Source of the DNA: a virus
Length of the DNA: 64,000 bases
IMG/VR virus record: IMGVR_UViG_3300033148_003055
Location: 1 to 64,000 of that record
Reading direction: 5' to 3' (one strand)
Numbering within the stretch: position 1 is the stretch's first letter; every line of letters begins with the position of its first letter. Of the stretch, positions 3,536 through 29,407 are shown in pieces. The translations under genes and the position numbers were made by a program. The notes below the pieces were generated by a model. It was not told the DNA's origin, searched no databases, and saw only the letters and a program-made list of their open reading frames with translations.

Positions 3536-5938
3536 TTACTTCTTCCTCGCCTTCATGACGAAGGTCATCTGGAGCTGCCACAGCTCCTTGCCGGTCGACG
3601 TGTTCTCGATGCCGGTGCGCTGGGGACCGAACGAGTCGGACCTGCGGGAGCTCTGCACGCGCCAGGCGGTCGTGTCCATGTCGCGGTTGTCGTAGAGAAC
3701 GGCGTCGACCTGCTCCTGAATCTGGGCGATGACGTCCGGGGAGTAGCCCCAGACGTTGACCTCAAGCGTGACGTTCCGCGAGTCCGCCGACGTGTCGAGG
3801 GCCGTGTCCGGGTCCTCGAGGATCGAGAGCGTGATCTGGGGGACGGCCCTGGAGTTCGGCTGGAACCCCCGGCGGATGTCCGCGCTGGAGTTGAGCAGGG
3901 CGACGAGGGTCGAGTTGGCCTGGAGTTCGTCGATGACGTAGGCGAGTATCTCGTTCGCCGTATCGTCCACCCCGAAGAAGAGCCACTTGATGTCCGCGAT
4001 GCCCCACGAGTCGCTCGACTTGTTCCGCACCTCGACGAGGCCGAATACCCCGAGCGCCGGGAGCGTGAGGGTCTCGTCGCCGTCGGCCACGAGCGGGTCG
4101 CCCGAGTTGTCGACGAGGGACGTGCCGTCCTTGTCCTTGATGTAGACGTAGCCTTCGGTGACGACGCCGGTGACCGGGATCGTGACGACGGTGCTGGCGT
4201 GAGTGATCGCGCCAATGGTCGGGGTGCCAGGCACCGAGACGGCGAAGGAGTCGAACGTCTGGTCCAGCGTGTATTCGTTCCCGTCCTCGTCCTCGACGGT
4301 CGCCCTGACGTAGTAACCGTTGCCTGCCGCCGGGGCGGTGAAGGTCGCGGCGCTGCCCTTAATCGTCGCCCACGTCTTCTGGGAGTCCTTGGTGTAGCTG
4401 ACGTTCGCCTGCGGAATGGGCGTGGACTGCAGCACGTCGGACGAGTTGAACAGCTCCACCTTCGTGGGGACCGTCGTCATGGCGTTCTTGCGGGACGTGA
4501 CGCCGCCGACTATCGTGATCGTCGCGCCTGGTGCCACTTTGCCAGCATCGGCGCCCGAGACCTGCAGGCGCAGGTCGATGTCCGGAGCGCCCTCGTCGAC
4601 GTAGGACGGGGCGAACTCCGTACCGTCTGCGCCGTAGGTGCCCGAGCCCGTTTTCGTGACCGCCTCTAGTGCGTCGGTGCGCGTGCCGAGCACGCCGTTG
4701 ATTGTGACACCAGCCTTGACATCGCCTGCCGTGACCGCCGACGCTGGAGCGACAGTGTCGGGATCGTTGTATCCCATGTAGACCTTGCCCGGCGTGCCGT
4801 CGCGCTTGCGGAGGGCTCCGGTGGCGTCAACGTAAGTTCGCGGCACGCCCTCAAAGACGCAGGCAACGCTTGTGTTGAGTAGCGTGAAGTCGTCTGTGCC
4901 GCGACTGGTGAAGACGGCATCCGTAAGGCCGGTGACCGGACCACCACCCGGCGCTGTTGCATCCTTGGAGCCGTTGTTGCGGCAGAAGAGCGCCTGCGAC
5001 TGGGTGTAATCTGTCGTGTTGTCGATGGCGAGACAGCCAATGCACACGCCGTCAGTCGTATTCCCGTGGAAGCCGGTAGTGCAATCAACGGCCGTGCAAT
5101 GAACGGCGCTGGCCGCATTGCCGCCCTGCCAGAAGCCGGTGGTGCAGTCGTAGGCGAGGCAATTCTCGGGCCCGGCGCCGTCGCTGCTAAACGTCATGCC
5201 GTGGCCATTGACATTAACAACGATGCACCGGAAGGCGCGGCAATGCTGGCTGTCCAACCCAACGCCAACCGTCGCCCCCGACAGGCCGTCAATCGTGAAG
5301 TTGTGTATCTCCCCAGCGCGGTCACTGAATGCAACAACGGACCCGGTGTTTTTAGATATAGTAATGCCTTGGTCGGCAACCATTCCGTAGACCATGAGCT
5401 GCTTGCCGATGCTCACGGCCTCGTTGTAGTTGTTGGATGCGCCCCCAGCGAACACCTGAATCGCGTCACCGTCACTGGCGGCAGAGACCGCAGCAGAGAT
5501 GGTCGCGTGCGTTTTTGAAGTGCCGACGGTCTCGGTGTCATTCATGCGCGTATTGTGAGCGTCCGAGTGGGCCTCAGCATCAGCCGTGCTTAGAAGTTCC
5601 GTGGCGGCCTTGTCGTGCTTCCGAACGTTCTGGCAGAGGCCGGAAGCCACCACCCGCTGTTTGGCCGCGCAGTCTGCGGCCACGAGCCGCGTGGTGGGCA
5701 CCCTCTTGGGGCAGTCGCCACTCTCATCCCAGCACCAGAAGTTATCCTCCTTCAACTCCGACAGCGGCCCCTCGCGTATTTCGAATATCTTGCCATTGCC
5801 CTCGCCGAAGGGGTGCATGTCGAAGTGACCCTTCGACTTCGTGATGACGTGGATATACGCCTTCTCGCCCGTAGTCGGGTCGATGCGCACGTCAAAGACG
5901 GCGTGGACGATAGGGTCTAGGACGACAGGGTCAAGCAT
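3536..5938 (-). CDS. Structural protein: pectin-lyase-like beta-helix fused to a C-terminal tail terminator/completion domain
   Basis: TISAAVSAASDGDAIQV...YNEAV and C-x-A-x-x-C-x-x-G-F coil repeats; last ~140 aa (LQANSTLVALL...PQITL...LEVNVWG...QVDAVL) resemble gp17/DUF3168 tail completion proteins. Confidence 0.65.
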   Translation of the reverse strand: MLDPVVLDPIVHAVFDVRIDPTTGEKAYIHVITKSKGHFDMHPFGEGNGKIFEIREGPLSELKEDNFWCWDESGDCPKRVPTTRLVAADCAAKQRVVASGLCQNVRKHDKAATELLSTADAEAHSDAHNTRMNDTETVGTSKTHATISAAVSAASDGDAIQVFAGGASNNYNEAVSIGKQLMVYGMVADQGITISKNTGSVVAFSDRAGEIHNFTIDGLSGATVGVGLDSQHCRAFRCIVVNVNGHGMTFSSDGAGPENCLAYDCTTGFWQGGNAASAVHCTAVDCTTGFHGNTTDGVCIGCLAIDNTTDYTQSQALFCRNNGSKDATAPGGGPVTGLTDAVFTSRGTDDFTLLNTSVACVFEGVPRTYVDATGALRKRDGTPGKVYMGYNDPDTVAPASAVTAGDVKAGVTINGVLGTRTDALEAVTKTGSGTYGADGTEFAPSYVDEGAPDIDLRLQVSGADAGKVAPGATITIVGGVTSRKNAMTTVPTKVELFNSSDVLQSTPIPQANVSYTKDSQKTWATIKGSAATFTAPAAGNGYYVRATVEDEDGNEYTLDQTFDSFAVSVPGTPTIGAITHASTVVTIPVTGVVTEGYVYIKDKDGTSLVDNSGDPLVADGDETLTLPALGVFGLVEVRNKSSDSWGIADIKWLFFGVDDTANEILAYVIDELQANSTLVALLNSSADIRRGFQPNSRAVPQITLSILEDPDTALDTSADSRNVTLEVNVWGYSPDVIAQIQEQVDAVLYDNRDMDTTAWRVQSSRRSDSFGPQRTGIENTSTGKELWQLQMTFVMKARKK

Positions 5939-7880: not shown

Positions 7881-8474
7881 TTACAGCTCCCAGTGCTTGT
7901 ACTGGGCGAGCCAGCCGATCGCGTCCTCTGGGATGTCGCCCATGAGATATTCGGCGGAGTACTGGGATACCTTCATCGATGCGAATCCCTCGGCGCCCTC
8001 CTGAGACTTGCGGTAGACATACGCGCACCAAATCTTCGCGGCCATCTTCAGGGCCGCCGGAATGTTCGCGACCAGAGCACCGAGGCCCCCGGTGTAGACG
8101 ACCTTGAGGGACCGGATGCCGTTTGGGAACTTCGACCCGTAACGCTCAAGGATTCCCTTCACGTCGTCAATCAGGTAGTCGGTCGTGGCGAGCGCCGTCG
8201 CCCCAGCGTGATCCCGCGGGACGGAAGTGGACTCGGTGATCGTGACGTCCTTGGTGAGGTCGACAGGCCAGCGGTTGAGGTTGACTTTACTGGCCCCCTC
8301 GGCATCGAAGTGCTCGGTGAGTTCCGCCTTCAGGAACGTCCGGTTGCAGTACAGCTCGATGGCCTCGGAGACGGCGGAGACGATCGGGGTCATGCGGCCG
8401 GTGTCGCTGTCAGCGACCACCCCCGTGTAGACCTCGAGTTCCGCGACGGTGATCAGCTCGACGGATGCAGCCAT
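7881..8474 (-). CDS. Head-tail connector (gp6/gp15-like)
   Basis: LITVAELEVY, IELYCNRTF, VVYTGG, IPAALKMA motifs. Confidence 0.85.
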   Translation of the reverse strand: MAASVELITVAELEVYTGVVADSDTGRMTPIVSAVSEAIELYCNRTFLKAELTEHFDAEGASKVNLNRWPVDLTKDVTITESTSVPRDHAGATALATTDYLIDDVKGILERYGSKFPNGIRSLKVVYTGGLGALVANIPAALKMAAKIWCAYVYRKSQEGAEGFASMKVSQYSAEYLMGDIPEDAIGWLAQYKHWEL

Positions 8475-9502
8475 GTCCGGTCAACCTCCTCGAGGATTTC
8501 GCGCAGGCGCTTCCCGGTGTGCTCCCACGTGAATCCCGACCTTATCCTAGCCGCCGCGAGCTGGCCCCTGGCGACTGCCTGCTTGTAGTGCTGGAAGACC
8601 CAGATAAGCCGGTCGCAGATGCTTCCGACGTCTGGGCTCGCTACCAACGCTTCACCGCAGAGGTCCTCGTAGTTGGGCCAATCTTCCGGCAGGTTCGGAC
8701 TTATATCGGTCCGGACGGCCTCGTATTTCAAGGGAAATGCTACCCGCCCGTCGCAGTAGTCCGTCATCGCCGACCACGGCGTGAACAGGCACGGCAGTCC
8801 CGCCGCCATCGCCTCGGCCAGCGTGAGGCCGAACCCCTCCCCACCGGACGGGAAGACGAAGGCGTGGGCGTCGTGGTAGACTTGCACAAGCTCGTCAAGT
8901 GGGAGCTTCCTGGAGTCGACGATGAGCCGGGCGTTGGAGCCGAGGCGCTTCGTCTCGACGCCCTTCTCTGCACCTCCGGGAAGCGTCGTCTTCAGGTAGA
9001 AGTCGAAGGGCCAGTCCTGCAGCATGTGGGCCGCCGCGAGGAAGGCTGGGTACCCCTTGCGCTGGTTCGGCGCCCCGAGCCAGAGCACCCGGAACCGCTC
9101 GTTCTTTGCGAGCTTCCGCTTCTTTTTCCTGGCGAACCGGTCGTAGTGAACGCCGAGAGGGCAGACGTAGATCGGCGTCGACTCCCCCACGATCTCACGG
9201 TACGTCGGGACGAGGTAGGAGGCGGTCGAGATGATGAAGTCGGCCTGCTTGAGGCACCGCATCGCTGGCATGGCCGTCGGAGAGTCCCAGGCCGTGTAGA
9301 TGCCGTGGACGGTCCCGGTGTCCTGGGGGAAGAAGGAAAGCGGCGACTGGACGGTCAAGGTCATCTCCGCCCGCGGGTCTATCACACCACCGGCCCGCTC
9401 AAGGGCGGCCTTGGACTCGCGGTTGTGGACGGCGAAGCCGAGGTGGTTCCCCTCGGCGTCCTCCGGCCGCTCGACCCAGTTCACTCGCATGGTGCGCTCC
9501 AC
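8453..9502 (-). CDS. Glycosyltransferase family 4 (GT-B)
   Basis: RKGY, FVFPSGGEGFGLTLAEAMAAGLP (E-x7-E), FTWEHT. Confidence 0.93.
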   Translation of the reverse strand: MERTMRVNWVERPEDAEGNHLGFAVHNRESKAALERAGGVIDPRAEMTLTVQSPLSFFPQDTGTVHGIYTAWDSPTAMPAMRCLKQADFIISTASYLVPTYREIVGESTPIYVCPLGVHYDRFARKKKRKLAKNERFRVLWLGAPNQRKGYPAFLAAAHMLQDWPFDFYLKTTLPGGAEKGVETKRLGSNARLIVDSRKLPLDELVQVYHDAHAFVFPSGGEGFGLTLAEAMAAGLPCLFTPWSAMTDYCDGRVAFPLKYEAVRTDISPNLPEDWPNYEDLCGEALVASPDVGSICDRLIWVFQHYKQAVARGQLAAARIRSGFTWEHTGKRLREILEEVDRTWLHPSS

Positions 9503-10065
9503 ATCCAGTACCCCCGACTGCTGGGGATGTAGACCCCCGGGACGTCCTGGGCAAGGCAGGCCTTAGTGACCCCCGGCTCCGTCCCCATGTCGTGGACGAG
9601 AACGATCTCCCGGGCAACTCGGCGTGCTTCACGAATGTCGGCGAGGGCGGACTCGTAACTGTGATTGGCGTCGACGATTACGAGGCCCCAGGTCTTGTCC
9701 TTCTGTGCCTTGAGGTATTCAAGCGAGTCGCACGTCTTGAAGGCCATGATCTCCGGGGAGGAACCGTCGCGGACGGTGTTCTCTCTCGGGACCTTCCGCC
9801 CGTCCGACCGTCCCCCGTACTCGTGACTCCAGTCGTCGACCCCGCAGTACTTCCCCCGGGCGTTCTCGGTCAACGCCCGACAGATCACGACAGCGCCGAT
9901 ACCGTCGGACACCCCGAGCTCGAGGACGGTGTAAGGCTTCATGGCCCGAACGAGAGCGTAAACGAACAGGCGCTCCACCGGCCAGTCGAGCGGGGACTTC
10001 CCAATGACGGACTCGATATCGTTCTGGCCGTCGCCCTTGCGACGTTCGGCGTTTTGACGGTCCAC
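9481..10065 (-). CDS. Class I SAM methyltransferase (Methyltransf_24-like)
   Basis: VLELGVSDG, IVDANHSYE, VHD motifs; GTG start inferred. Confidence 0.85.
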   Translation of the reverse strand: MDRQNAERRKGDGQNDIESVIGKSPLDWPVERLFVYALVRAMKPYTVLELGVSDGIGAVVICRALTENARGKYCGVDDWSHEYGGRSDGRKVPRENTVRDGSSPEIMAFKTCDSLEYLKAQKDKTWGLVIVDANHSYESALADIREARRVAREIVLVHDMGTEPGVTKACLAQDVPGVYIPSSRGYWMWSAPCE

Positions 10066-10066
10066 G

Positions 10067-10612
10067 TCAGGCCTCCGCTCTCCGTAGAACGGCAGTTGTG
10101 CGGAAGACTTCGACGAGCTCGAAGTCGGTCTCGGCGATGAACTCCTCGACGGCCTCCCCAACGCCCTTGAGGTGATCGAGTTCCCAACGGCCGTAGTCGT
10201 GGACGCACAGGGTCCCGTCTTCCTTGAGTAGCCAGGCGACCCGGCGACAGTCCGCCAGGCAGGCGTCGTGGCTGTGGTCCCCATCGACGAGGACGAAGTC
10301 GAAGAGCTCCCGCCGGACGTACCGGTCCAACTCTTTGAGAGTTCCGTGGAAGAGATTCATGTTCTGGCGCCCGTTTCCGTTTGCGTCCCAGAGCTCCGCG
10401 ACCCCGGCTCCCGTCCCCTCTCCCTTACGGAACGGGTCGACCGAGAGGAAGTTCGCCCCCGGTCGACGATCAGCCCAGTACGCACACGTCGCCCCGTCGA
10501 GGGTTCCGATTTCGAGGACGTTCCCCTGTTCTGGCAGGACGGTGAGCATGAACTCCCGCTCCGTCTTGTGCATCGCGCTCCGGCCCTGGTAGCCGTCCAT
10601 CTTGTCGCTCAT
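10067..10612 (-). CDS. Class I SAM methyltransferase (Methyltransf_24-like)
   Basis: VLEIGTLDG, SVDPF, VDGDHSHD, VHDY. Confidence 0.9.
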   Translation of the reverse strand: MSDKMDGYQGRSAMHKTEREFMLTVLPEQGNVLEIGTLDGATCAYWADRRPGANFLSVDPFRKGEGTGAGVAELWDANGNGRQNMNLFHGTLKELDRYVRRELFDFVLVDGDHSHDACLADCRRVAWLLKEDGTLCVHDYGRWELDHLKGVGEAVEEFIAETDFELVEVFRTTAVLRRAEA

Positions 10613-11328
10613 CTTGAACCCCTCTCTCCCTTGTCGATGCCGCACCGTTTACAGATCGGAATATCCCGCCGCCCGGACATGAGGTCGCGGTAGACCTTCT
10701 TTGCCCGAGGACTATCAACGAAGGCGCCCAGACCGTCCTTGAGGTTACCAAAGGTGATCGACGTCGCCCAATCGAAGCAGCACAGAGCGATGTCGCCCGT
10801 GCACCGGACCACGACCGCACCGAACGGAGAGTCACACTTCGAGTCCGGGCCGAGGTCGATGAGGTCGCGGCCGTACCAGTTGAGTCTGTCATCGAGTCCG
10901 TGCCTGGCCACTCGAAGGTCGACCCCTTCTGGCGCCGTCAGCCCCCGTAGTCGCGCCCCTTCAAGGTCTGTGTACGCGGTCACTTCGACCTGTTTCACAT
11001 TCGGGCGCCTACACAGGTCGTCGAGGAGTTGCTGACTCAGGTTCCAGCCGTTGGTCATGATGAAGACACGGGCGTCCGGGCACGCACAGTCCGCGAAGTC
11101 GATCAGGCTGAACAGACGCGGGTCGAGCATCGGCTCGCAGTAGTTGTGGAAGGCCAGACGCCCGTTGAAGTCGTGATCCCCAAGCTCGACCAGCGCGAGC
11201 TCGACCCAGAGTTCTGGGAGGTGCCTGACCCCGTCGGCGTGGTCGTGGAGTGGGCACTTCGCGTGCTGGTCGGCGAAGTTGCAAACGTTCGACAGCTCGA
11301 AGGTGACACGCTTGATTTTATCCCACAT
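10609..11328 (-). CDS. Radical SAM / twitch-SPASM protein with variant CX5HX2C motif
   Basis: ELSNVCNFADQHAKCP, EPMLDP, MTNG, C..PF...GDIALCCFD...GNL...CKRC. Confidence 0.85.
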   Translation of the reverse strand: MWDKIKRVTFELSNVCNFADQHAKCPLHDHADGVRHLPELWVELALVELGDHDFNGRLAFHNYCEPMLDPRLFSLIDFADCACPDARVFIMTNGWNLSQQLLDDLCRRPNVKQVEVTAYTDLEGARLRGLTAPEGVDLRVARHGLDDRLNWYGRDLIDLGPDSKCDSPFGAVVVRCTGDIALCCFDWATSITFGNLKDGLGAFVDSPRAKKVYRDLMSGRRDIPICKRCGIDKGERGSR

Positions 11329-12100
11329 GACCGCACCTCCGGAGGATGCTATCTCTAGACGCCTCGTCAAGAAGCGGTCCGATCTTCGCAGCGATCTTCG
11401 GGTTCTTCCACATGCTAGTCGTGTTCTTCTCGTGCACCACGACCACGAACTGACCACCAGGGAGGTCGACCCGGTTAGCGCATTCCCTGAACCGGTTGTG
11501 GGGCAGGCAGAAGTTCCACCGTTCCTCGTAACCGTCCGGGTCGTCGAGGTAGTCGCGCGCGTACGTCTTCGCGAAGAATGGCGGAGGGCACGAGCCCGGG
11601 GTGTAGGTGCACATCTCCCCCGTCGCCGAGTTGTATATGTACCCGGCTCGGAAGAGCTGGATGAGCCCGGGCGAGACGTCCTTGAGTTCGATATGCTTGC
11701 GGGCGGACTTGAGGTACATGTCGTCGGAGTCGACGCAAAGGAACGTGATCGCCTCGGCATCGTGTCTTTCAAGAAACTCGAACACAGCCTCCCGCGCCGG
11801 GCCCTTTCCATACTTCTCGGAGTCTCGGGCGGGGTGGAATATCGGGATCGCTTTGAAGTCCTTGAGGACGTCAAGTACCGGCTTGGCGATACCCTTGCTC
11901 TCCTCTGGGATGCCCGCCCAGATGCTCTTACCGTGGGCAAGGCGGCAAAGTGACGGCAGCGTAAACTTACGGAGGACCTCCGCGCGCTCCGCCCACCACT
12001 TCGGCTTCCCGGAACCGCGCCGCCAGTACCACCCGCCCACCTCGGTCTCGTGGTGGAGGAGCTCGCCGAACGGAACCCAGATTCGCAGCGCCGACTTCAT
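11318..12100 (-). CDS. Putative glycosyltransferase (rhamnosyltransferase-like GT-A)
   Basis: RAEVLRKFTLPSL, VDSDDMY DxD motif, VVVHEKN. Confidence 0.75.
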   Translation of the reverse strand: MKSALRIWVPFGELLHHETEVGGWYWRRGSGKPKWWAERAEVLRKFTLPSLCRLAHGKSIWAGIPEESKGIAKPVLDVLKDFKAIPIFHPARDSEKYGKGPAREAVFEFLERHDAEAITFLCVDSDDMYLKSARKHIELKDVSPGLIQLFRAGYIYNSATGEMCTYTPGSCPPPFFAKTYARDYLDDPDGYEERWNFCLPHNRFRECANRVDLPGGQFVVVVHEKNTTSMWKNPKIAAKIGPLLDEASRDSILRRCGHVG

Positions 12101-12741
12101 CGCACAGTCTCCTCGAAGAAGTCGAAGTTCCTGAGGAGCTCGTAGCCGCTCTTCTGAAGTTGGACCACGAGACTCTTCAGGAGGCCGTGCAGTCCGTTGA
12201 CCCGAACCTGCCAACCGTGAGAGACGACGTGGACTGGAAGCCCTTCCGTCATTGCCGTCATCGTGATCTCGCCGTCGCTCCTCCGTTGGATGATCTCCGT
12301 CACCGGGAGAAGGAGCGGGTTGTCCGGGGCTTCGACCTTTCGGTAGTCGCCTCGGATGCAGGTCCGGGCGTACTTCATCCCGCAGCCCTGAACGTACGCC
12401 GCGCTTCTTGGGCAGAACTTCCCGGCCGGGTAGGCGAAGCAGTTCACGTCGTGGATCGGGAAGAAGGTCTGGAGCTCCCTGCGGGCGCGGTGGATTTCGT
12501 CGCCGAGTTCCTCTGGTCCAAGGTCGGGCACCCAGCGATGGGTCCGGGTGTGGTTCCCGACTTCGTGACCGTCGTAGAGTCGGCAGATTTCCTCGCGGTG
12601 CATCCCATCGTAGACGGAGGGCAGCAGTAACGCGGGACAGAGGTAGAACGTCGCCGGGATCTCCATCTTGTCAAAGAGTCGGATGACATCGATGTCCCCC
12701 GCCCCTCCGTCGTCGAAGCTGAACGTGGCGATCTTCTTCAT
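12097..12741 (-). CDS. Polysaccharide deacetylase (CE4/NodB)
   Basis: FSFDDG, PATFY, HEVGNHTRTH, FAYPAG. Confidence 0.92.
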   Translation of the reverse strand: MKKIATFSFDDGGAGDIDVIRLFDKMEIPATFYLCPALLLPSVYDGMHREEICRLYDGHEVGNHTRTHRWVPDLGPEELGDEIHRARRELQTFFPIHDVNCFAYPAGKFCPRSAAYVQGCGMKYARTCIRGDYRKVEAPDNPLLLPVTEIIQRRSDGEITMTAMTEGLPVHVVSHGWQVRVNGLHGLLKSLVVQLQKSGYELLRNFDFFEETVR

Positions 12742-13523
12742 GACTGTGTCCAATCCTTCACCCCGAAGACGCCAAGCACCCGTGCGCGCTCCGCACTGTT
12801 GGTGATCTCCCGGCGGAGCTTCTTCTTGGTGTGGCTGTTCTCCCAACTCGACACAACGTTCTCGCCGTGGATGAGGTAGCAGAACTGGCCACCGGACATG
12901 ACTATGACCCTCGGGCAGTCCCGGACCTTGTGATGCGGACCCTGCAATCCCCACTTGTCTCGGTAGGCCCACCACGCCTCGTCCGATTCGAAGGCCTCCC
13001 CCGAGAACATCATCGCCAGGAACGGCGGGGTCGAGTCGGTGGAGTCGTACTCGAAGAGGCGACCGTCGACCCCAAGGATGTAGCCCTCCTCGAAGACGAG
13101 ACACAGGCCACCACCGGGGGCGATCGCGTCGAAAGATCGGAAGGCGTACCGCCCATACATATCATCGGAGTCGAGGTTGATCAGCACGAGATGGTCGCAC
13201 CACCCCCTGTAGTTCTCGCGGATCGCCTCCGCGCCGCCAAACATGCCCTCGCTCGGCTCGGTGTAGACGCACTGACCTCCTGCCGCCTCGATGGCCTGGC
13301 GGACCTCGGCGGAGTTCTCGTCGTCCTGACGCAGGAACAGACCGTACAGGTCGAAGTCCTGGAGCGACTGGTTCGCCAAGCTCGGGAGCGTAAACCGCTG
13401 GAGGATGTCCAGCCTGCTCACCCACCATTCGCGTCGTGCCATGTTCTTCCGGTAACGCCACGCATTCTTGACGCCGGAGTCGTCGCGGTTGAATCTCATG
13501 ATGACGGCTAGTCGCTTCTTCAC
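12738..13523 (-). CDS. Putative glycosyltransferase (rhamnosyltransferase-like), paralog of 11318-12100
   Basis: RLDILQRFTLPSLANQSLQDF, LDSDDMY, PPF, IHGEN. Confidence 0.78.
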   Translation of the reverse strand: MKKRLAVIMRFNRDDSGVKNAWRYRKNMARREWWVSRLDILQRFTLPSLANQSLQDFDLYGLFLRQDDENSAEVRQAIEAAGGQCVYTEPSEGMFGGAEAIRENYRGWCDHLVLINLDSDDMYGRYAFRSFDAIAPGGGLCLVFEEGYILGVDGRLFEYDSTDSTPPFLAMMFSGEAFESDEAWWAYRDKWGLQGPHHKVRDCPRVIVMSGGQFCYLIHGENVVSSWENSHTKKKLRREITNSAERARVLGVFGVKDWTQS

Positions 13524-14215
13524 TTCCAAACCCTCGCACACTTGCGGCAGACATCGTAGCACCGTTTCCCGTTTTCCAGGTTCTCCACTGCCTTGAGGCG
13601 CCGCTCGCTTTCGAGAATCTCGGCAAGCGATTGATCGTTCAGGTCCCCGAGTATGCACGTATGTTTCCAGTCCCGGCAGCAGAGCCCGACTTCCCCCGTG
13701 TGCCAGATCGTCAGGTTCTTCTTCGGCGCGTGACACGGCATCGACAGGTCGACCGGGTCTCGGTCGTACATTTGCAATCGCGAGTCGAGCCGCTCTTCCC
13801 TGACCGAGTACCTGGCGCCGCCCTTGAGAGTCCGGAGCCTGGCGGCCTCTTCTGGGGTGTACCCGTTCGTGATAACGCGGGCGCCGTAAATCTGCGTAAG
13901 CCTTGTGAGGAGGTACTGATCGAGGCAGCGCCCGTTCGTGATGACGTACGGTGTGGCTTTGATCCGCATGTTGACACGGAGAAACTCGAGGAACTCGAAC
14001 AGCCTTGGGTCTTCCAGAGGCTCGTTGTACACCGAGAAGATCACCTCGCCGGTGTATCCATGATCAGCGAAGTGGTCAAGAACCCGGTAGACGATCTTGT
14101 CGTCCAGGTACTTCGTCTCGGTGACGAGGCTCGCCGGGCACCTCGGGTGCATGTGCGCGTAGCTGCACCGGTTGTTGATTTCAAGCTGGACCTGATGGAT
14201 GCCTTCGATACTCAC
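13520..14215 (-). CDS. Radical SAM / twitch-SPASM protein with variant CX5HX2C motif
   Basis: EINNRCSYAHMHPRCP, NEPLEDP, ITNG, PCHAP...GEVGLCCRDW...CRKC. Confidence 0.85.
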   Translation of the reverse strand: MSIEGIHQVQLEINNRCSYAHMHPRCPASLVTETKYLDDKIVYRVLDHFADHGYTGEVIFSVYNEPLEDPRLFEFLEFLRVNMRIKATPYVITNGRCLDQYLLTRLTQIYGARVITNGYTPEEAARLRTLKGGARYSVREERLDSRLQMYDRDPVDLSMPCHAPKKNLTIWHTGEVGLCCRDWKHTCILGDLNDQSLAEILESERRLKAVENLENGKRCYDVCRKCARVWK

Positions 14216-14754
14216 GACGCCCTCCTCATCACGGCCATGTGATCGACTCTGGCCGTCATCTGCCAAACGCTATCCCCAACGAACTCGTCCACCGCCTTCG
14301 TCACGCGCTCCCCTGGGATGCGCCCGTAGTCGTGAGCGAGGAGGACCCCGCCCTTCTTGATGACGGCCGAGCAGACCCGAAGGTCGAGCAGGCAGTTCTC
14401 GTAGTTGTGGCACCCGTCCACGAGGACGACGTCGAAGAGGTTGTCGACGATCATCGCGAGGTCGACCGACGTCCCGACGTGAAGCCGCATGTTCGGTTGC
14501 GCGTTCCTGGACCAGATCACCTCATCGCCCTCTACCCCGTTGTCCGCGTCCCCGGTAATGAACGGATCGACGCAAAGGAGCCGAGCGTTCGGACGGGCCA
14601 TCGAGACCATCGCCGCGGTGACCCCGTGGTACGTTCCAATTTCGAGGAGGCGGCCGTCGTCCGGGAGGGCAGTGATGATCGTGGACAGCTCCCGCTGTGA
14701 CACGAGGGCCTTGCCCTGCAGGTCCGGGTGGGTGAGTCCGAGTGGCGTTCCCAT
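14212..14754 (-). CDS. Class I SAM methyltransferase (Methyltransf_24-like)
   Basis: LLEIGTYHG, CVDPF, VDGCHNYE, AHDY. Confidence 0.9.
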   Translation of the reverse strand: MGTPLGLTHPDLQGKALVSQRELSTIITALPDDGRLLEIGTYHGVTAAMVSMARPNARLLCVDPFITGDADNGVEGDEVIWSRNAQPNMRLHVGTSVDLAMIVDNLFDVVLVDGCHNYENCLLDLRVCSAVIKKGGVLLAHDYGRIPGERVTKAVDEFVGDSVWQMTARVDHMAVMRRAS

Positions 14755-15566
14755 TACTCGTACCCCCACTGTCTTAAGGCATTGATGAACCTATCGTCCA
14801 ATTTGCTTTCGAGGTCCGGCTGCTCCGCCTTCCACCGTCCGACGTGGATCGGGTTGTAGAACGTGACGAAGGACTCCTCGTCCCCGTCGTGGTCGTCGAG
14901 ACCGACGAAGGCGGCGATGTCCCGGAATACCTTCGCCCGATCCTTCACGGCTTCCTCAAGACGTACGGTCATGATCCGGTCACGGAGGGACGGAAGCATG
15001 AGAGCGGCTTCGAGACCCTCCATGCACTTGATCCACCAGTCCGCCGCGAACTGCGGCTCATGCTTGCGGGTCATCAGCGACGTCACTGCATCCCGCCCAT
15101 CCCGGATGCAGAAGATGACGCGGGCGTCCGGGTACTCGTCGAAGACCTCCGGCAGCTGGTCGCAGTACGTGAGCGGAGTCTTATCCCCGTAGAGGCGGAG
15201 GGAGCCCTTCGAGAGTTCGGCCATCTGGAAGAGGACGTACTGGAGGGTGCTGAGTTCGGCGTCCGGCCCGACCTTCTCGACGAGCTTGCGTATCTCGCTT
15301 ATCGGGATCGTCTGGGCAAGCGGGTTTCGCAGCAGGAACGGGCGCTCCAAAATCTCCTTCTTCGTGTACGGGCCGTCGCCGTGGTGCCGCTCGATCATAC
15401 GCTTCAGCCGATCCATCGAGGCCACGTACGCACGTCCTTGGGTTGAGTAGAGTTCCAGCTCGTACCAGATGCAGATGCCCGGCAGTGCCGACAGGGCCAT
15501 CTGCAGGCCGGTGGTCCCGGTCCTGGGGCAGCCGGTAATGATGAGGGGCTCGTTGTACTTCTTCAT
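14754..15566 (-). CDS. Sulfotransferase
   Basis: 5'-PSB IITGCPRTGTT, YGDKTP, 3'-PB IRDGRDAVTS, VRLEE. Confidence 0.92.
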   Translation of the reverse strand: MKKYNEPLIITGCPRTGTTGLQMALSALPGICIWYELELYSTQGRAYVASMDRLKRMIERHHGDGPYTKKEILERPFLLRNPLAQTIPISEIRKLVEKVGPDAELSTLQYVLFQMAELSKGSLRLYGDKTPLTYCDQLPEVFDEYPDARVIFCIRDGRDAVTSLMTRKHEPQFAADWWIKCMEGLEAALMLPSLRDRIMTVRLEEAVKDRAKVFRDIAAFVGLDDHDGDEESFVTFYNPIHVGRWKAEQPDLESKLDDRFINALRQWGYE

Positions 15567-16195
15567 CCGTTCCTCCGGATGCTGACAACGCCGTTGTCGT
15601 AGCGGGCGATGGTCACGCCGAGGTCGGACCTGAACTGCTTGAGCTTGTCGAGCCGCATCTTCGGAAGGGTCGGGGCCCTGAGCCCATTCTTCGGCCCCCA
15701 CCTGGATGCGAACTGCTTCTCGTTCGTCCAAATCGTTCCTTCCGGAGCGAGCATGTCAAGATAGAGCAGGAAGAGGTTGACCCCGTGCCACTTGCAACAC
15801 GCATAGCAGGTCAGGTCCGAGTCGACGATCCAGTCGTACTTCGGGTTGTTCCCGAACCGCTTGTACGTCGGCCAGAGGTGCTTGTCCCCTACGACGACCT
15901 TGTAGTTCTCGATGGCGAGCAGGTCCGCGCGGTCCTTCTCCTTCGGGTTGATCGTGACACCCTTGATGGACGCGACACTGGGCGCAAGCTCCCTCGCCAG
16001 CCGCGAGTTCCCGACGCCGACGTGGAGGACGCGGTGGTCGCCGATTCCGGCGCAGCCAACGAGGAAATCGATCGTCGTGCGCTCGCCTTCGCTGCACGCC
16101 GACCGAGCCGCCCAGTTCTCCTTATCCTCAGCGAGGTCGTAGAGCGGAGTCGGTGTCTGGGCGCAACGCTCGTGGTCCTGTAGTCTCCACCTCAT
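15563..16195 (-). CDS. Class I SAM methyltransferase-like protein
   Basis: VLHVGVGNS glycine loop, YDWIVD, LAPEG. Confidence 0.6.
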   Translation of the reverse strand: MRWRLQDHERCAQTPTPLYDLAEDKENWAARSACSEGERTTIDFLVGCAGIGDHRVLHVGVGNSRLARELAPSVASIKGVTINPKEKDRADLLAIENYKVVVGDKHLWPTYKRFGNNPKYDWIVDSDLTCYACCKWHGVNLFLLYLDMLAPEGTIWTNEKQFASRWGPKNGLRAPTLPKMRLDKLKQFRSDLGVTIARYDNGVVSIRRNG

Positions 16196-16713
16196 GACTT
16201 ACTCCTTTCGAGAACTGCAAGGTTGTCGCAGCGTTCCTTGATCGTGAACCCGGTCCGCATTGTGAAGTCGTAGACGGCCCGCTCGACCGGCTCACGGTCG
16301 TAGTCGTGAACGGCGATGAGACCCTTCGGCTTGACAAGGCTCTTGGCGTAGTGGAGGTCCGTCGTCGCCCCGTTGAAGGTGTGGTCGCCGTCGACGACTA
16401 TCAGGTCGAACGGGCTCCCGTCCCAGACCTTCGCGACGTACCCTTGGATGGTTCCCTTGAAGAGCATCATCCCGGTCACCGCGTTGTCGTGCCACGCCTT
16501 CTCGCACGCCGGTCCGGCCTCCCCGACGAACGGGTCGACGCAGGCGATGTAGATCGAGGGGTGATGGTCCTTGACCTGGCAGGCGGTCACGCCGCACCAC
16601 GTCCCGATCTCCAGCATCGAGCCGACGTCGGGTGTGCTCTGAACGAGGCACGCCAGCTCGGCGCACGACATTTGGGAGGAACCCTTGTAACCTTCGGGCC
16701 AGCGAGTGGTCAT
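16192..16713 (-). CDS. Class I SAM methyltransferase (Methyltransf_24-like)
   Basis: MLEIGTWCG, CVDPF, VDGDHTFNG, VHDY. Confidence 0.9.
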   Translation of the reverse strand: MTTRWPEGYKGSSQMSCAELACLVQSTPDVGSMLEIGTWCGVTACQVKDHHPSIYIACVDPFVGEAGPACEKAWHDNAVTGMMLFKGTIQGYVAKVWDGSPFDLIVVDGDHTFNGATTDLHYAKSLVKPKGLIAVHDYDREPVERAVYDFTMRTGFTIKERCDNLAVLERSKS

Positions 16714-16985
16714 TTCCTGAAGAACCCCCAGATGCGTTCGTGGGCGACGTAGAACCCGAGCTTCGTGATGAACTCGGTGATGGCGATACCGGCGCTGATC
16801 TTGAAGTCCTTGGTCGTGAGGTACGCGATCGTCAGAGTGGCCAGGCTCCCGAGCACCCGGTAGCTCAGGGCCTTCGCGACGCTGCGCGCCCACGAGCCCG
16901 TCTCGAGCATCCCGACCCACATCGGGCGGATCATCGAGTCGACCCACGCTTCCTGCGCCTTGGGATCAGTCGGAGGCCAGAGCAT
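16710..16985 (-). CDS. DUF2061-like small membrane protein
   Basis: RSVAKALSYRVLGSLAT...KLGFYVAHERIW signature. Confidence 0.85.
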   Translation of the reverse strand: MLWPPTDPKAQEAWVDSMIRPMWVGMLETGSWARSVAKALSYRVLGSLATLTIAYLTTKDFKISAGIAITEFITKLGFYVAHERIWGFFRK

Positions 16986-17184
16986 TACGTATCCTTCGTT
17001 TCATATTCACAAGGAAGACCATGACGCACGCCGGGCACACCTTGATGAAGTCCTTCCCGTCGGACCCGACAGAGATGAACGCGATCGACATGAACCGCGT
17101 TCGCGCCCCGTCCTTGTCAATCTCGTGCGTGACGAACTCATCCTTATTCTCGAACTTCTCGCCGCACAGTGTGCACGTCTTCAC
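16966..17184 (-). CDS. Small Cys-rich (zinc ribbon) protein
   Basis: CTLC...CPAC; GTG start coupled to the upstream stop. Confidence 0.55.
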   Translation of the reverse strand: MKTCTLCGEKFENKDEFVTHEIDKDGARTRFMSIAFISVGSDGKDFIKVCPACVMVFLVNMKRRIRNALASD

Positions 17185-20042
17185 TTCAACGCCTCCTTCA
17201 CGATCTTTGGCAGCTTCCAGTCGACCATCTCCACGACGCCGTCTTCGGTCTGCCCGGCCTTGCCGTTCCATTCCTTCCACGCCTTCTCTCGTGACGGGTT
17301 GGCGCGGTCGCGCTCGGCGTAGAACTTGTACTTGGCGTCGAGGACGTCTGACGGAAGGGCGTGGCCGAGGTGGTAGATGGTCGTGCCCGGGACGGCGAGG
17401 GCCGCGTCGGGCGTGACCTCCATGACCGGCCTGCCTGTCGCAGAGCCGGGGATGCAGTGGCGGAGCCACATGAACGAGTTCCGCCAGTACGACCAGCGAT
17501 AGTGAGGACAAAGCGACGCACCCCCCTCAAGTGGGTAGCCCCAGTGGAGCGACTCGCCCGGGCCGTCGTGGACCCAGTACTTCCCGCCGTGCCACAGGTT
17601 CACCCAGCGAGGGGAGCCTTGAGGGAGGCCCGCCGCGATCCATTCCTCGAGGCCAGTCCAGATTTCGTCGCCGTCGAGGAGGAGATGATAATTGCCTTGG
17701 AGCTTCGAGGTACCCCACGCCCGCATGGCCTTCTTGTTCGGCCAGACGTCGCGGACCTCGAGTGTGATCTTGTTGTCTGGGTCGGGGAAGGCGCGAAGCC
17801 GGTCGAGGCTCCCGTCGTCGATCTCCGGAGCGAGGCGCACGCGCCCGAATGCGATCTTGATCTCGTCGACGTGGGGGTAGATGGACTCGAGGCTCTGGGG
17901 GACGAAGCCCCAGTACGCGATCATGTGTGCTGAGACGTGACGCTCCCGGACGCCGAGGAACGGGATGGCCTCGAGCTCGGCTCGCATCGTCGCGTGCCCG
18001 AACTTGGCGACGTGGGGGGCCGGGTCGATTACCTTCTTAGGCCGGGTGGCGTACTCCCTGACCTTCTCGGTGAAGGCGTCTTCGTCCCCCCACGCCACGT
18101 ACTCGAGCACGTCGCCGTACTCTTCCCTCATGACCGGAAGGTCGTACACGAGCGCGGGCGTCCCACTGCACAACGCTTCCATTGGGACCATCCCGAACCC
18201 CTCGAACTTCGACGGCGCCAGCGCCATGTGCGCCGCGCGGAGCAGGGCGTACTTCTCGACATCCGGGCGGTTGGGGTAGGTGTAGAGCTTGTGGAGGGCG
18301 GTCTCGGGAAGCTTGCAGTTGGGGTGCCCGAAGGTGACGATGTCGAACGGAACGTCCAGAGCCCAGATCGCCTTCATCGCAATGTCGCCGCCCTTGTACT
18401 TCGACGGCCTCGCCGACCAGAGGGCGAACGGGCGGGTCGGCAGCTCCACGTCCGCCGTCTTCGACATCTCGAGGGCGTACGTGTTGACCTTCGGCGCGTT
18501 GACGTATACAGGCTTGTCGGTCTCGAGCCATTTCTGAAGGTACCTGCCGGACTCCCTGGAGTTGGCGATGAGAGCGTCCGCGTCGGCGAAGTTCTCCTTC
18601 TCCTGCCCGCCGAGGGCGACGGCGTAGTCGGGGAGGAACTCGTGGACCCAGTTCGGCGTCTCGAAGTTCACGCAAGCGAACGGCCGTCCGCGAGCCTCCG
18701 CCCACTCCTGGGCCTTCTGCCCGAAGCCAACCTTGGAGTCGGTGATGGCAACGTCGATGTCCTCAGGGATCGGGTCGACCCCACTGATGATGAGGTGGAT
18801 GCGTTCGGTGGCGGCGTAGTCCTTCGCCCAGCGCGGAGCCCCGCCGGTGATCAGGAATACTTCGGCCCCGAGGTCGGCCGCCCAGGTGATCGCGTCCTGG
18901 TACATGTGAATGCGCCCGCCCGAGTAGCTGCCCGAGTTGGCGAGCCAGATTCCGAATCGTTTCGTGAACGTCCCGGCGAGGTCGCTGAAGGTATCCTCGA
19001 GCGCGTTGTCGTCGTCGAGGAGGAGGCCCTTCCGGGCGCGGAGCTGGTAGCGGTAGGTGTTGGTGCCCTGCTTCGCGGCCATCTTCGTCGACATGGAACT
19101 CTGCGTCCGACGGCACCAGGCGAGCCTTTGTTCAAGGGCGACGATCTGCCTCCCCTCCGTGGCCATCTCGAACCGCAGGAACATCGCGCAGTCGCCCGCG
19201 GGGATTTCCTTCTCTCTCCAACCGCCGACGTAGTCGTACAGGCTCTTCCGGTACGCCCGCACGCCGCACACGTAGCAGCCGTCCGATAGGATCGACCCGG
19301 AGCGGTAGAGAGGTTTGTCGAAGCGACGGAAGGCGAGGCCCTCCCCGACGGATGCCTGGTCCTCCTCGACGAACCAGTCCTCCGGTTGGAAGTTGGGGTG
19401 GAGGTGGTCGGCCGCGGCAAACATCATCGCCCCGCCATACACGAAGCTGTTCCCGGCCCGCATCGCGTTACGCATGAGACGCAACGCTCCGGGGCAGAGC
19501 AGGTCGTGGTCGTCCAGCTCGACGACCATCGCCTCGTCGGGCACGTGCGCCATCCCCGTGGTCCTCGGGACGTTCGGTGCGCCGGTGTGTTCAGGCAGCC
19601 CTTCCACGATGACCTTCGTGGTGATCGTTGAGCACGCTTTCTTCACGATCTTTGTGACCTCGTCCAAACCCTCCGGCCCGTCGTTGATCACAACGATGCC
19701 GGCTGGCTCGAGGTCCTGGGCGACGAGAGACTTGAGGCACTGTCCAAGGTGGAGGCTACGGTCGAACGTCGGAATCACAACCCAGATCGGGCCGGGGTCG
19801 GCCTTCGCGATCTTGTACTGGCCCGACGGCCGGGACGAACGCTTGGGTGTCGGGGTTGGGGTCGGGGTGGCAGTCTCGAGTTGCTTGCGACGGTGTGGGT
19901 CGACGCCACATTCGACCGCCTGCTTATTCGCGAGCAGGAGGTTGGCGTCGTCGTCAGTAATTCTACCAGGGGACCGAAGGACCGCGCCGACGGCGTAGGA
20001 TTCGCCACCGACCTCGCAACTCTCGATGAGCTTGACTAGCAC
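17181..20042 (-). CDS. Multidomain glycosyltransferase (GT2 + GT4 + GT-A-like)
   Basis: VVIPTFDR..INDG..LDDHD (GT2); PSKFEGFGMVPMEA (GT4); LLLDGDEIW (third GT-A); N-terminal small domain plus TPTPTP linker. Confidence 0.9.
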   Translation of the reverse strand: MLVKLIESCEVGGESYAVGAVLRSPGRITDDDANLLLANKQAVECGVDPHRRKQLETATPTPTPTPKRSSRPSGQYKIAKADPGPIWVVIPTFDRSLHLGQCLKSLVAQDLEPAGIVVINDGPEGLDEVTKIVKKACSTITTKVIVEGLPEHTGAPNVPRTTGMAHVPDEAMVVELDDHDLLCPGALRLMRNAMRAGNSFVYGGAMMFAAADHLHPNFQPEDWFVEEDQASVGEGLAFRRFDKPLYRSGSILSDGCYVCGVRAYRKSLYDYVGGWREKEIPAGDCAMFLRFEMATEGRQIVALEQRLAWCRRTQSSMSTKMAAKQGTNTYRYQLRARKGLLLDDDNALEDTFSDLAGTFTKRFGIWLANSGSYSGGRIHMYQDAITWAADLGAEVFLITGGAPRWAKDYAATERIHLIISGVDPIPEDIDVAITDSKVGFGQKAQEWAEARGRPFACVNFETPNWVHEFLPDYAVALGGQEKENFADADALIANSRESGRYLQKWLETDKPVYVNAPKVNTYALEMSKTADVELPTRPFALWSARPSKYKGGDIAMKAIWALDVPFDIVTFGHPNCKLPETALHKLYTYPNRPDVEKYALLRAAHMALAPSKFEGFGMVPMEALCSGTPALVYDLPVMREEYGDVLEYVAWGDEDAFTEKVREYATRPKKVIDPAPHVAKFGHATMRAELEAIPFLGVRERHVSAHMIAYWGFVPQSLESIYPHVDEIKIAFGRVRLAPEIDDGSLDRLRAFPDPDNKITLEVRDVWPNKKAMRAWGTSKLQGNYHLLLDGDEIWTGLEEWIAAGLPQGSPRWVNLWHGGKYWVHDGPGESLHWGYPLEGGASLCPHYRWSYWRNSFMWLRHCIPGSATGRPVMEVTPDAALAVPGTTIYHLGHALPSDVLDAKYKFYAERDRANPSREKAWKEWNGKAGQTEDGVVEMVDWKLPKIVKEALK

Positions 20043-20115: not shown

Positions 20116-21261
20116 TTAGACGCCCGTGATGTCCTTGCCGAGCGCGAAGGCGTCTTCGAGCGCGACCTTTCCGTCGAAGCGGCCGACCATCTTGACGCCG
20201 GTCGTGCCCTGCTCCCAGAAGCGTCCGCCGGACTCCGTGGAGAAGTCGAGCTTCATGCGGTCGAACCACATGTAGGACATCAGGTCACCGAGGTAGAGGA
20301 CGTCGGTGGCGAAGTCGTCCTGACGCGAGTAAGCGAATCCTGCGATCGTTGCGGGCTGACCCTCAACGATACCCCGCTCGAAGATCGGGCGGTTCTGAAG
20401 GTCGACGAGACCTGCGATCTCATCGATAACGCTCGTGTTTCCGATCCAGCGAGCATTCTTCCGGTACTTGGCCGGAAGCTTCTTCTTGATCTCGATCAGG
20501 CCAGCATACGTGATGCTGTTCGAGAGCGAGACGGACTGGGTGATCGTCGCCGAAGCGATACCGGTCGGCTGCGTGGTGCCAGCGCCGATTGCGACCATCT
20601 TGTCCTGTTCCTCGATCAGTCCCTGGGTGAAGAGACGCGTGACGTCGGCGATGACGTTGATCGGGGAATCCTGCAGGAGGTAGTAGGAAACCTCGGTGAA
20701 CAGATAGCACTCGTACGCGGTGAACGTGATCTGGCCGTAGGCCGGATCGCTCGCCGTGTAGGCAGCTGCCTCTGTGCGGTTCCAGCGCCGCGTTACCGCG
20801 GAGCCTTCCTTGGGGACCGTGCCCGTGTCGCTCGTCACCGGAACCCGGCGAACGTGCGGCATGAGCTCGGAGAAGTCTCCCGCCTTCTCGATCATCTGGG
20901 CGATGTACTCGACGGGCGTGAGGTCCGCTCCTTCGGTGCTCTCTGTGAGGGCCTTCTGGCGAATGTCCTCGACGTACGGCAGCGTGCTGTTGAGCCACGA
21001 CTGCTTGGCGAGCATCTGGGCCTTGGCGATGTGAACCGCCTGGTCCGGGCCCTGCTTGCCGGCGAGCACCTTGTAGAGGTACCACTGGCCGAGCAGCTGC
21101 TCGGGCGTCAGGTCATTGATGCCCTTCTTCTCGGCACCGAAGACCATCTCGACGCGCTTGTCCTTGTTCATCGCAGCTGCCTTCTTCTCGATCTCGCTCG
21201 CCACCATCTTGGGGATGGAGTCTGCGATCTCGCCGAGCGCTGCCTTCAGCTTCTCATTCAT
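20116..21261 (-). CDS. Major capsid protein (HK97 fold)
   Basis: GADLTPVEY, EVSYYLLQDS, GAGTTQPTGI, LVDLQNRPIF, GDLMSY, RFDGK. Confidence 0.95.
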   Translation of the reverse strand: MNEKLKAALGEIADSIPKMVASEIEKKAAAMNKDKRVEMVFGAEKKGINDLTPEQLLGQWYLYKVLAGKQGPDQAVHIAKAQMLAKQSWLNSTLPYVEDIRQKALTESTEGADLTPVEYIAQMIEKAGDFSELMPHVRRVPVTSDTGTVPKEGSAVTRRWNRTEAAAYTASDPAYGQITFTAYECYLFTEVSYYLLQDSPINVIADVTRLFTQGLIEEQDKMVAIGAGTTQPTGIASATITQSVSLSNSITYAGLIEIKKKLPAKYRKNARWIGNTSVIDEIAGLVDLQNRPIFERGIVEGQPATIAGFAYSRQDDFATDVLYLGDLMSYMWFDRMKLDFSTESGGRFWEQGTTGVKMVGRFDGKVALEDAFALGKDITGV

Positions 21262-25064: not shown

Positions 25065-25330
25065 TACTTCTTCTCCTTGAGGTCGCGGATGGCCCTGTAG
25101 ATCAGCCACATCATCGCGACCTGGACGAACGGGATAAACGGCGAAACCGCCGCGACCATCATCTCGAATAGCGAGGGCTGGGGCATCACTTGAGCATCAC
25201 CCTTCGGGGCTCGCGATCGGGATCGGGGCGGACCTCGCCAGACCCTCGGTGGCAGACCGAGCACGTCAGGATGCTGGCAGTCTTCGTCGTGACCAGGGTC
25301 GTCTTCCCACCGCAGAAGCGACAGGTCCCG

Positions 25331-29055: not shown

Positions 29056-29132
29056 TGGTAGCGGGAGCAGGATTCGAACCTGCGATCTCCGGCTTATGAA
29101 ACCGGTGTGCTAGACCACTGCACCATCCCGCC
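29056..29132 (-). tRNA. tRNA-Met(CAT) (Met/fMet/Ile2 not resolved)
   Basis: Cloverleaf; loop TTCATAA; GGTTCGAATCC; encoded CCA. Confidence 0.9.
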
Positions 29133-29145
29133 CGCTACTCTCCAA

Positions 29146-29219
29146 TGGGGTGACCGGTGGGGGACGATCCCACGTCTGCTGGTACACAGCCAGCTATTCT
29201 TCCGTTGAACTACGGCCAC
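29146..29219 (-). tRNA. tRNA-His(GTG)
   Basis: Stem GCTGG/CCAGC, loop CTGTGTA; C73; CCA; variant T-loop. Confidence 0.85.
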
Positions 29220-29225
29220 TATTAA

Positions 29226-29321
29226 GGGTCCTCGACCAGGATTCGAACCTGGATTACCGGCGGACCGGTGTTCCGACCTACCGCCGTCGCGCGCAGCACG
29301 GCTATTGGAAGACCGAGGACC
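29226..29321 (-). ncRNA. tRNA-like RNA with expanded D-loop and no anticodon
   Basis: Acceptor GGTCCTCG/CGAGGACC, perfect T-arm CCAGG-TTCGAAT-CCTGG, anticodon arm ACCGG-TCCG-CCGGT, hairpin inserted in the D-loop; no CCA. Confidence 0.6.
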
Positions 29322-29332
29322 ATTCTCTTCTC

Positions 29333-29407
29333 TGGCGCCCTGACGGGGTGTCGATCCCCGCTCTCCCGCTAGACAGGCGGGTGTTCTGGCCGATGAACTA
29401 CCAGGGC
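29333..29407 (-). tRNA. tRNA-Asp(GTC)
   Basis: CCCGC-CTGTCTA-GCGGG; G73; CCA. Confidence 0.87.

Follow-up and report, generated by a model that had tools for sequence, protein, structure and literature searches.

A family-wide histidine at the place of the middle cluster cysteine in BtrN-like twitch proteins, two of them encoded in a phage glycan module

The 64,000-nucleotide stretch considered here (the window) is the start of an 81,558-bp IMG/VR virus record, IMGVR_UViG_3300033148_003055, which has direct terminal repeats and is rated 100% complete. Two of its genes, designated A and B (Table 1), are best explained as functioning members of a large subfamily, as yet without a name, of BtrN-like twitch proteins with the radical S-adenosylmethionine (SAM) fold, in which the middle cysteine of the cluster motif has become a histidine family-wide. 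Where CX3CX2C would be expected, A reads CNFADQHAKCP and B CSYAHMHPRCP, both C-x5-H-x2-C-P; a first-pass annotation of the window had noticed both motifs, translation reproduces them, and the outer limit it gave for the pair, 14215, is exactly the first base of the GTG start codon of B. The key residues are C16, H22, C25, and P26 in A, with twitch cysteines C165, C183, C184, C226, and C229, and C34, H40, C43, and P44 in B, with C178, C196, C197, C240, and C243. Residue numbers for B and for the family follow a 248-amino-acid (aa) open reading frame (ORF) with a TTG start (extending to 14266); for the 231-aa form, listed in the database as P0003, 17 must be subtracted.

A word-indexed search with B recovered 15 relatives, all with the histidine. 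A profile of these relatives matched 19,000 of 1.84 billion representative proteins at E ≤ 0.001, 6,388 at E ≤ 1e-10, and 320 at E ≤ 1e-30; the family profile scores A at 282.5 bits and B at 324.6. The motif counts that follow rest on the best 150 of the 320 strongest matches, all below 1e-56, plus the other family proteins and ORFs collected, which come from viruses, bacteria, and archaea. C-x5-H-x2-C is present in 149 of 162 family proteins; the other 13 comprise five with C-x3-H-x2-C, two with C-x5-H-x3-C, one with a canonical motif (P0130, CNLHCRKCP), and five that are N-terminally truncated. With viral ORFs added, 170 full-length domains divide into 161, six, two, and one of the same four motif types, so that histidine occurs at the canonical spacing as well, and cysteine occurs naturally at the same site. 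The first-pass annotation proposed a His-type subfamily from two copies; far from being unconserved among homologues, the histidine (H40) is present in 169 of the 170 domains, C34 and C43 in all of them, and P44 in 164, a constancy well outside what chance would give.

Conservation extends well beyond the loop. At the positions of the SAM motifs the counts are Y80 156, N81 140, E82 164, P83 165, T/S110 168, N111 161, and G112 162 of 170. The twitch cysteines are kept in 169 (C178), 170 (C196), 163 (C197), 170 (C240), and 170 (C243) domains, and D86 (169/169), Y136 (169/170), D199 (164/170), and several basic residues (R88, 168/169; R143; R163; R235) are conserved also. Among IMG/VR loci, all 18 scoring at least 141 bits are His-type, and all of those at 118 bits or below with a readable motif have canonical CX3CX2C, except for one divergent His-type gene (L070). 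On this scale, nearly all of the 320 matches at E ≤ 1e-30 should be His-type.

A tree was calculated with FastTree only, from the 170 domains (62 of 232 profile matches were omitted for incomplete domain coverage) and a hand-chosen outgroup of six of 47 canonical relatives. When rooted, it places all 170 family domains on one side, with support of 94. At the base (support 83), the Cys-type P0130 clusters with three His-type domains, two of x3 and one of x5 spacing, an arrangement compatible with a path from cysteine to histidine at x3 spacing and then to histidine at x5. Identity between A and B is 33% across 228 residues (E 1e-36), so that the two are diverged, as had been noted; they are not sister copies, however. 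A falls beside P0080 (47% identity) and B beside P0004 (67%), in separate subclades, and a recent tandem duplication was rejected on this ground in spite of the similar gene trios around them.

Members longer than 320 aa (34 in all) include four with Methyltransf_11/23 domains, two with FkbM, about four with TPR, and one with an epimerase-like domain. One 636-aa fusion, P0043, combines a C-terminal His-type domain (CNYTHLHKKC) with a canonical radical SAM domain at its N-terminus (CNLNCWGC; PF04055, E 1.5e-14).

The placement of the histidine on the middle cysteine comes only from profile–profile alignment with canonical relatives, and not from the alignment to BtrN discussed below. Aligned by hhalign with 11 canonical phage relatives (group A3, CNRTCxFCP), the family matches over 221 columns with a probability of 99.9% (E 8.8e-34): in the loop, the first cysteines coincide, a two-residue gap follows, and then histidine is set on the middle cysteine, lysine on phenylalanine, and C-P on C-P. 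A first spacer of variable length has precedents, since a passage in PMC9477430 lists CX7CX2C, CX8CX2C, and CX11CX2C motifs, in all of which CX2C is fixed. Those families keep three cysteines, whereas the His-type family has histidine at the second ligand position; they resemble it in that its first spacer also varies (x3 or x5) while the final x2-C does not. Given the hhalign result, the six members with x3-spaced histidine, the one with cysteine there, and the freedom of the first spacer, the histidine is, by alignment, positionally equivalent to the middle cysteine of CX3CX2C, which bears out the canonical position proposed in the first-pass annotation.

Among solved structures the one relative is BtrN, the 2-deoxy-scyllo-inosamine dehydrogenase of the butirosin pathway. 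The family profile, searched against the PDB, aligns to it (4M7T/4M7S) from profile position 10 to 230 of 237, with E 1.5e-30; it is also the sole PDB match below 0.01 for either protein alone, both over the full length (B, E 2.1e-9, 40.5 bits; A, E 5.4e-7, 32.5 bits). BtrN is a twitch-domain radical SAM enzyme that removes two electrons from 2-deoxy-scyllo-inosamine (passages in PMC9012708 and PMC10337720), with radical SAM cluster ligands C16, C20, and C23 and an auxiliary [4Fe-4S] cluster held by four cysteines (PMC9012708). Its auxiliary-cluster cysteines C169, C187, C232, and C235 align to C178, C196, C240, and C243 of the family, its Y62-G-E-P to Y-N-E-P, and its T91-N-G to T-N-G (BtrN residues were counted along the printed alignment and checked against C16/C20/C23 as given in PMC9012708). 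A and B share with BtrN a length of about 230–250 aa, the four auxiliary cysteines, Y-x-E-P, and T-N-G, and the small-sugar type of its substrate may be counted as a further likeness. They differ in the loop, which in BtrN is CNRTCWYCP, with three cysteines and an aromatic residue, and in A and B is C-x5-H-x2-C-P with Lys/Arg; in a C-C pair where BtrN has C-F; and in context, a glycan and methyltransferase cluster vs. an aminoglycoside pathway. Without close identity or an aminoglycoside (butirosin) setting, A and B are remote relatives of BtrN and not its orthologues. The affinity to sugar dehydrogenases suggested in the first-pass annotation is nonetheless apparent, BtrN being a sugar (aminocyclitol) dehydrogenase.

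An ESM Atlas model of B has a predicted template modelling score (pTM) of 0.88, and its structural neighbors are radical SAM/SPASM clusters at TM scores of 0.85–0.92. Pfam likewise recognizes SPASM (PF13186) in the C-terminal region of both proteins (A, E 2.2e-9; B, E 2.6e-11). There are, however, only five cysteines in this region, with no second CX2CX5CX3C run, and the chain ends 5–10 residues past the CxxC, which makes the C-terminal part a twitch domain rather than a two-cluster SPASM domain. The first-pass annotation was thus right that EP, TNG, and the C-terminal cysteines are retained, while its twitch/SPASM set is narrowed to a twitch domain with one auxiliary cluster, not the seven-cysteine arrangement.

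Whether the histidine-bearing loop supports SAM chemistry is a separate question, and several observations weigh against it. Neither A nor B has a match to the Radical_SAM model PF04055 at E ≤ 0.1. In the HMMER alignment to BtrN, the loop is ungapped and the histidine faces Tyr22 rather than Cys20. The aromatic residue of the CX3CX(phi)C motif orients the SAM adenine (a passage in PMC6231123); the residue before the last cysteine is Lys or Arg in 112 of 161 family members and aromatic in three, whereas 39 of the 47 canonical relatives have Phe. The second glycine of the GGE motif is Asn in 140 of 170 domains, with GG reading Y-N. Together, these two substitutions indicate an altered SAM pocket. 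A histidine ligand would be expected to raise the cluster potential, which would work against reduction of SAM. In a literature search in which subscription journals were thinly covered, no precedent was found for a non-cysteine protein ligand on a SAM-cleaving cluster, nor any description of a His-containing radical SAM cluster motif. The RadicalSAM.org resource takes three cysteines as belonging to the superfamily “by definition,” in the text of PMC9477430 drawn on here, and neither CNFADQHAKC nor CSYAHMHPRC contains them.

Other features point the opposite way. In the profile match to BtrN, homology with a solved radical SAM enzyme runs the length of the chain. The positions of the SAM-binding GGE and ribose motifs are still constrained, with E-P in 164 and 165 and N-G in 161 and 162 of 170 domains. 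Pseudo radical SAM proteins are a poor comparison: here the ligand positions are invariant and E-P and T-N-G are conserved, and a search of A and B against NCBIfam gave sub-threshold matches only, none to a pseudo-rSAM model. PF04055 matches 13 of the 34 long relatives at E ≤ 1e-5, and P0130 is exactly at its 29.5-bit cut-off. (PHROGs gave nothing for A and a weak match for B, at E 0.0016.) The canonical phage relatives (L047, L020, L022; CNRTCxFCP) differ from A and B in having three cysteines, in the frequent Phe before the last of them, and in scores of at most 118 bits rather than at least 141. Outside the loop, E-P and N-G are common to both groups, and so are Y136, the C-C pair, D199, and R235; the last four, which the family has in common with the 47 canonical relatives, argue for the same kind of chemistry in both.

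Two ways of tying further changes to the histidine were tried and rejected. Loss of the aromatic residue is not coupled to it, because the Cys-type P0130 (CNLHCRKC) likewise has Lys there; loss of the aromatic residue and the change from cysteine to histidine are therefore separable. D86 and R88 are not His-specific partners either: the closest canonical relatives also read N-E-P-x-x-D-P-R, the consensus of the 11 A3 sequences being N-E-P-x-l-D-P-R, as in L047, and each residue is kept in eight of the 40 canonical relatives (of 47) that align there.

On balance, we put at about even the likelihood that A and B are enzymes in which two cysteines and a histidine hold a SAM-binding [4Fe-4S] cluster, and that they act on a sugar of a glycan. 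In such an enzyme, Cys34, His40, and Cys43 would hold three irons of a site-differentiated cluster, and the fourth iron would bind SAM. Cleavage of SAM to a 5′-deoxyadenosyl radical would then allow removal of a hydrogen from a sugar carbon, either in the glycan or in a nucleotide-sugar precursor. Two outcomes may be envisaged. The fully cysteine-ligated twitch cluster could take up the second electron, giving a keto sugar by oxidation of the BtrN kind; alternatively, C197, the additional conserved cysteine of the C-C pair, could return a hydrogen and so epimerize the sugar, as in NeoN. NeoN, set beside the family by its description, is likewise a twitch-type sugar-modifying radical SAM enzyme, with a canonical CxxxCxxC, and its Cys249 is the hydrogen donor in epimerization (a passage in PMC10991966). 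By analogy, C197 of the family could play the same part. The enzyme would be expected to act together with the adjoining SAM-dependent methyltransferase and glycosyltransferase. A further twitch radical SAM enzyme, HygY, likewise with a canonical CxxxCxxC, is reportedly a sugar epimerase, to go by a title.

If SAM is not reductively cleaved, A and B could still be iron–sulfur enzymes that retain the fold and a Cys2His N-terminal cluster. Its open iron, beside the Lys/Arg, would bind an anionic substrate or cofactor (a nucleotide-sugar diphosphate, for instance, or a carboxylate), and would serve as a Lewis acid or redox center (dehydratase- or isomerase-like), or the protein would be an electron-transfer partner of the neighboring methyltransferase. 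The exchange of the aromatic residue for Lys/Arg in 112 of 161 members, the change of GGE to Y-N-E, the conserved arginines (88, 143, 163, and 235), the failure of PF04055 on both proteins, and the want of a His-ligated SAM-cleaving cluster in the literature searched would all fit such an enzyme. On the other hand, E-P and T-N-G, positions that touch the methionine and ribose parts of SAM in canonical enzymes, are nearly invariant; Lys in the Cys-type P0130 makes the aromatic loss independent of the histidine; and the residues common to the canonical relatives (Y136, C-C, D199, R235) suggest unchanged chemistry. We consider this alternative unlikely, though to be taken seriously.

It is more doubtful still that there is no N-terminal iron–sulfur cluster at all, with Cys-His-Cys binding zinc or a single iron, or being structural, in a redox or scaffold subunit that has only its twitch cluster and accompanies methyltransferases and glycosyltransferases. 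There are indeed only three candidate ligands, one of them histidine, and tight translational coupling to methyltransferase and glycosyltransferase genes, with methyltransferase fusions in some relatives, would suit a subunit of this kind; but the H-x2-C spacing and following proline are exactly those of cluster-binding loops, histidine is found at x3 spacing in six members and cysteine at its site in one, and conservation of the SAM-motif positions would not be expected in a scaffold. That A and B are canonical radical SAM genes in decay or already inactive, as the missing third cysteine might suggest, is scarcely credible. Both ORFs are intact, with Shine-Dalgarno sites and translational coupling, and the same histidine in nearly every homologue from viruses, bacteria, and archaea, with 320 representative clusters at E ≤ 1e-30, already refutes it; the first-pass annotation had argued against decay from its two copies, and the family upholds that conclusion.

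The glycan setting proposed in the first-pass annotation is found both in the window and at 43 other loci. Among 65 immediate same-strand neighbors at these loci, Methyltransf_24 is commonest (11), then GT2 glycosyltransferases (7), followed by Methyltransf_11, _25, and _31 (four each) and Methyltransf_23 and FkbM (three each); GT1/4, polysaccharide deacetylase, Wzt/ABC transporter, DegT aminotransferase, and FdtA also occur. (Neighbors were stop-to-stop ORFs picked by position; the tally omits L001 and L002, from the window, and L021, which is truncated and nearly duplicates L008.) Some neighbors are giant multi-domain proteins combining methyltransferase, glycosyltransferase, deacetylase, and TPR domains. 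By BLAST of loci L003–L018, nine of 16 have a Methyltransf_24 relative, which abuts the gene in five. The context of the family is therefore glycan synthesis, most often beside methyltransferases. Cellular members come from 26 of 32 genome loci and include Lachnospiraceae (one being a cultured isolate, Butyrivibrio hungatei NK4A153, with homologue L093), Selenomonadaceae, Planctomycetota, Methanoregula, candidate-phyla bacteria, Chlamydiales, and Dependentiae. At one viral locus (L003, an 89.8-kb contig), an ORF resembling GIY-YIG/NUMOD3 homing endonucleases lies directly upstream of the His-type gene (4987–5919).

In the window itself, A and B are part of a glycan module set among minus-strand structural genes identified by PHROG matches: terminase, portal, protease-like protein, major head protein, head-tail adaptor, and tape measure. 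The module contains a GT4 glycosyltransferase, four Methyltransf_24 genes, a polysaccharide deacetylase, a sulfotransferase, two GT-A-like paralogs (E 1e-23), a 210-aa protein of unknown function, a 953-aa GT2+GT4 protein, and A and B. Each of the two His-type genes is in a trio, methyltransferase–B–GT-A in one case and GT-A–A–methyltransferase in the other; the two flanking methyltransferases are 37% identical to each other, and the same three kinds of gene are found together at another locus (L015). A GTGA overlap joins the start of B to the stop of the methyltransferase gene upstream, and a second GTGA joins the stop of B to the start of the GT-A-like gene downstream. Both genes belong to a tightly packed, translationally coupled gene run.

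Table 1. Genes A and B, their motifs, and the surrounding glycan module (positions in the window).
Feature	Position	Strand	Remarks
Gene A	10609..11328	-	239 aa; ATG start seven bases after GGAGG; overlaps neighbors
Gene B	13520..14215	-	231 aa; GTG start six bases after AGGAGG
Motif CNFADQHAKCP of A (C-x5-H-x2-C-P)	11251..11283	-	By translation
Motif CSYAHMHPRCP of B (C-x5-H-x2-C-P)	14135..14167	-	By translation
Twitch cysteine set of A, C165 to C229	10642..10836	-	Nucleotides converted from residue numbers
Twitch cysteine set of B, C178 to C243	13538..13735	-	Nucleotides converted from residue numbers
Glycan module	8453..20042	-	~11.6 kb; flanked by head-tail adaptor and major head protein genes
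Methyltransf_24 gene directly downstream of A	10067..10645	-	PF13578, E 1.9e-11; ORF overlaps A
Methyltransf_24 gene directly upstream of B	14212..14769	-	PF13578, E 9.9e-17; stop overlaps B start
Four Methyltransf_24 genes	Lower coordinates 9481, 10067, 14212, 16192; span 9481-16947	-	Pfam
Second GT-A-like paralog	11318..12214	-	No Pfam match; stop overlaps A start; own start codon uncertain
GT-A-like glycosyltransferase	12738..13523	-	Weak PF11316, E 0.0014, below Pfam cut-off; GTG start overlaps B stop as GTGA
Polysaccharide deacetylase	within 12097-13104	-	Module member
Sulfotransferase	within 14754-15731	-	PF13469, E 1.2e-18
953-aa GT2+GT4 protein	17181-20042	-	GT2, residues 88-207; GT4/GT1, residues 577-665; directly downstream of major head gene
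Head-tail adaptor	7881-8474	-	PHROG match
Major head protein	20116-21261	-	PHROG match

Capsid glycosylation in mycobacteriophages has been inferred from two glycosyltransferase genes near a capsid gene (a passage in PMC11256854). The module in the window resembles these in being rich in glycosyltransferases and within a structural gene block; it differs in its size, ~11.6 kb, and in the addition of four methyltransferases, a sulfotransferase, a deacetylase, and two His-type enzymes. Since it lies beside capsid genes, and following the mycobacteriophage precedent, its product would decorate the virion, and A and B may be read as sugar-tailoring enzymes of a virion glycan. The presence of a sulfotransferase and four Methyltransf_24 paralogs within the structural module suggests that this virion glycan is sulfated and heavily methylated.

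The portal protein of the phage is at most 27.5% identical to that of any phage in a collection of 50,697 records, which places it at a distance from cultured phages, and in the same records no match was found to window positions 10000–15000 (megablast) or to gene B (tblastn). It also encodes a canonical radical SAM/SPASM enzyme, a 522-aa ORF with CPLRCSYC, FFGGEPLV, and TTNG (PF04055, E 3e-12; L103 814–2382, minus strand), so the His motif is no quirk of this genome. The ORF upstream of this one (L103 2207–3412, minus strand; the two are at ~72.2–75.7 kb of the genome, G000:C1, beyond the window) has no Pfam match and a C-terminal region of ~150 aa exceptionally rich in Cys, Thr, and Glu, with C-E-T and C-Q-C-Q runs; this tail could be a protein substrate for thioether-type cross-linking. 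Elsewhere in the window, ten tRNA genes (Met, His, Asp, Arg, Ile, Trp, Gly, Lys, Pro, and Thr) form an array at 29056–30510 on the minus strand; a tRNA-Gln called by ARAGORN at 23711–23784, inside the portal ORF (22902–25109), is probably a false positive.

The family either breaks the three-cysteine definition of radical SAM enzymes or carries out a different chemistry, and resources built on the three-cysteine rule would miss such a family. With histidine conserved at the second ligand position, nature in effect provides a test of how the identity of a ligand tunes SAM activation, in a family of hundreds of sequence clusters that supplies natural Cys-type and x3-spaced His-type members as controls. 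The question is directly testable, as the proteins are of ~230 aa, the homologue BtrN has been crystallized, and a further homologue is encoded by a cultured organism, B. hungatei NK4A153. More tentatively than for the enzymes themselves, it is possible that these would be the first natural radical SAM enzymes with a SAM-activating [4Fe-4S] cluster on two cysteines and one histidine, that the histidine together with Lys/Arg retunes the cluster for C-H chemistry on glycans, whether in potential, in proton coupling, or in oxygen tolerance, and that the family is distributed across phage virion-glycosylation modules and bacterial and archaeal surface-glycan clusters. If the enzymes are active, they would also be a sign of unknown radical chemistry, coupled to methylation, on glycans of virions and cell surfaces.

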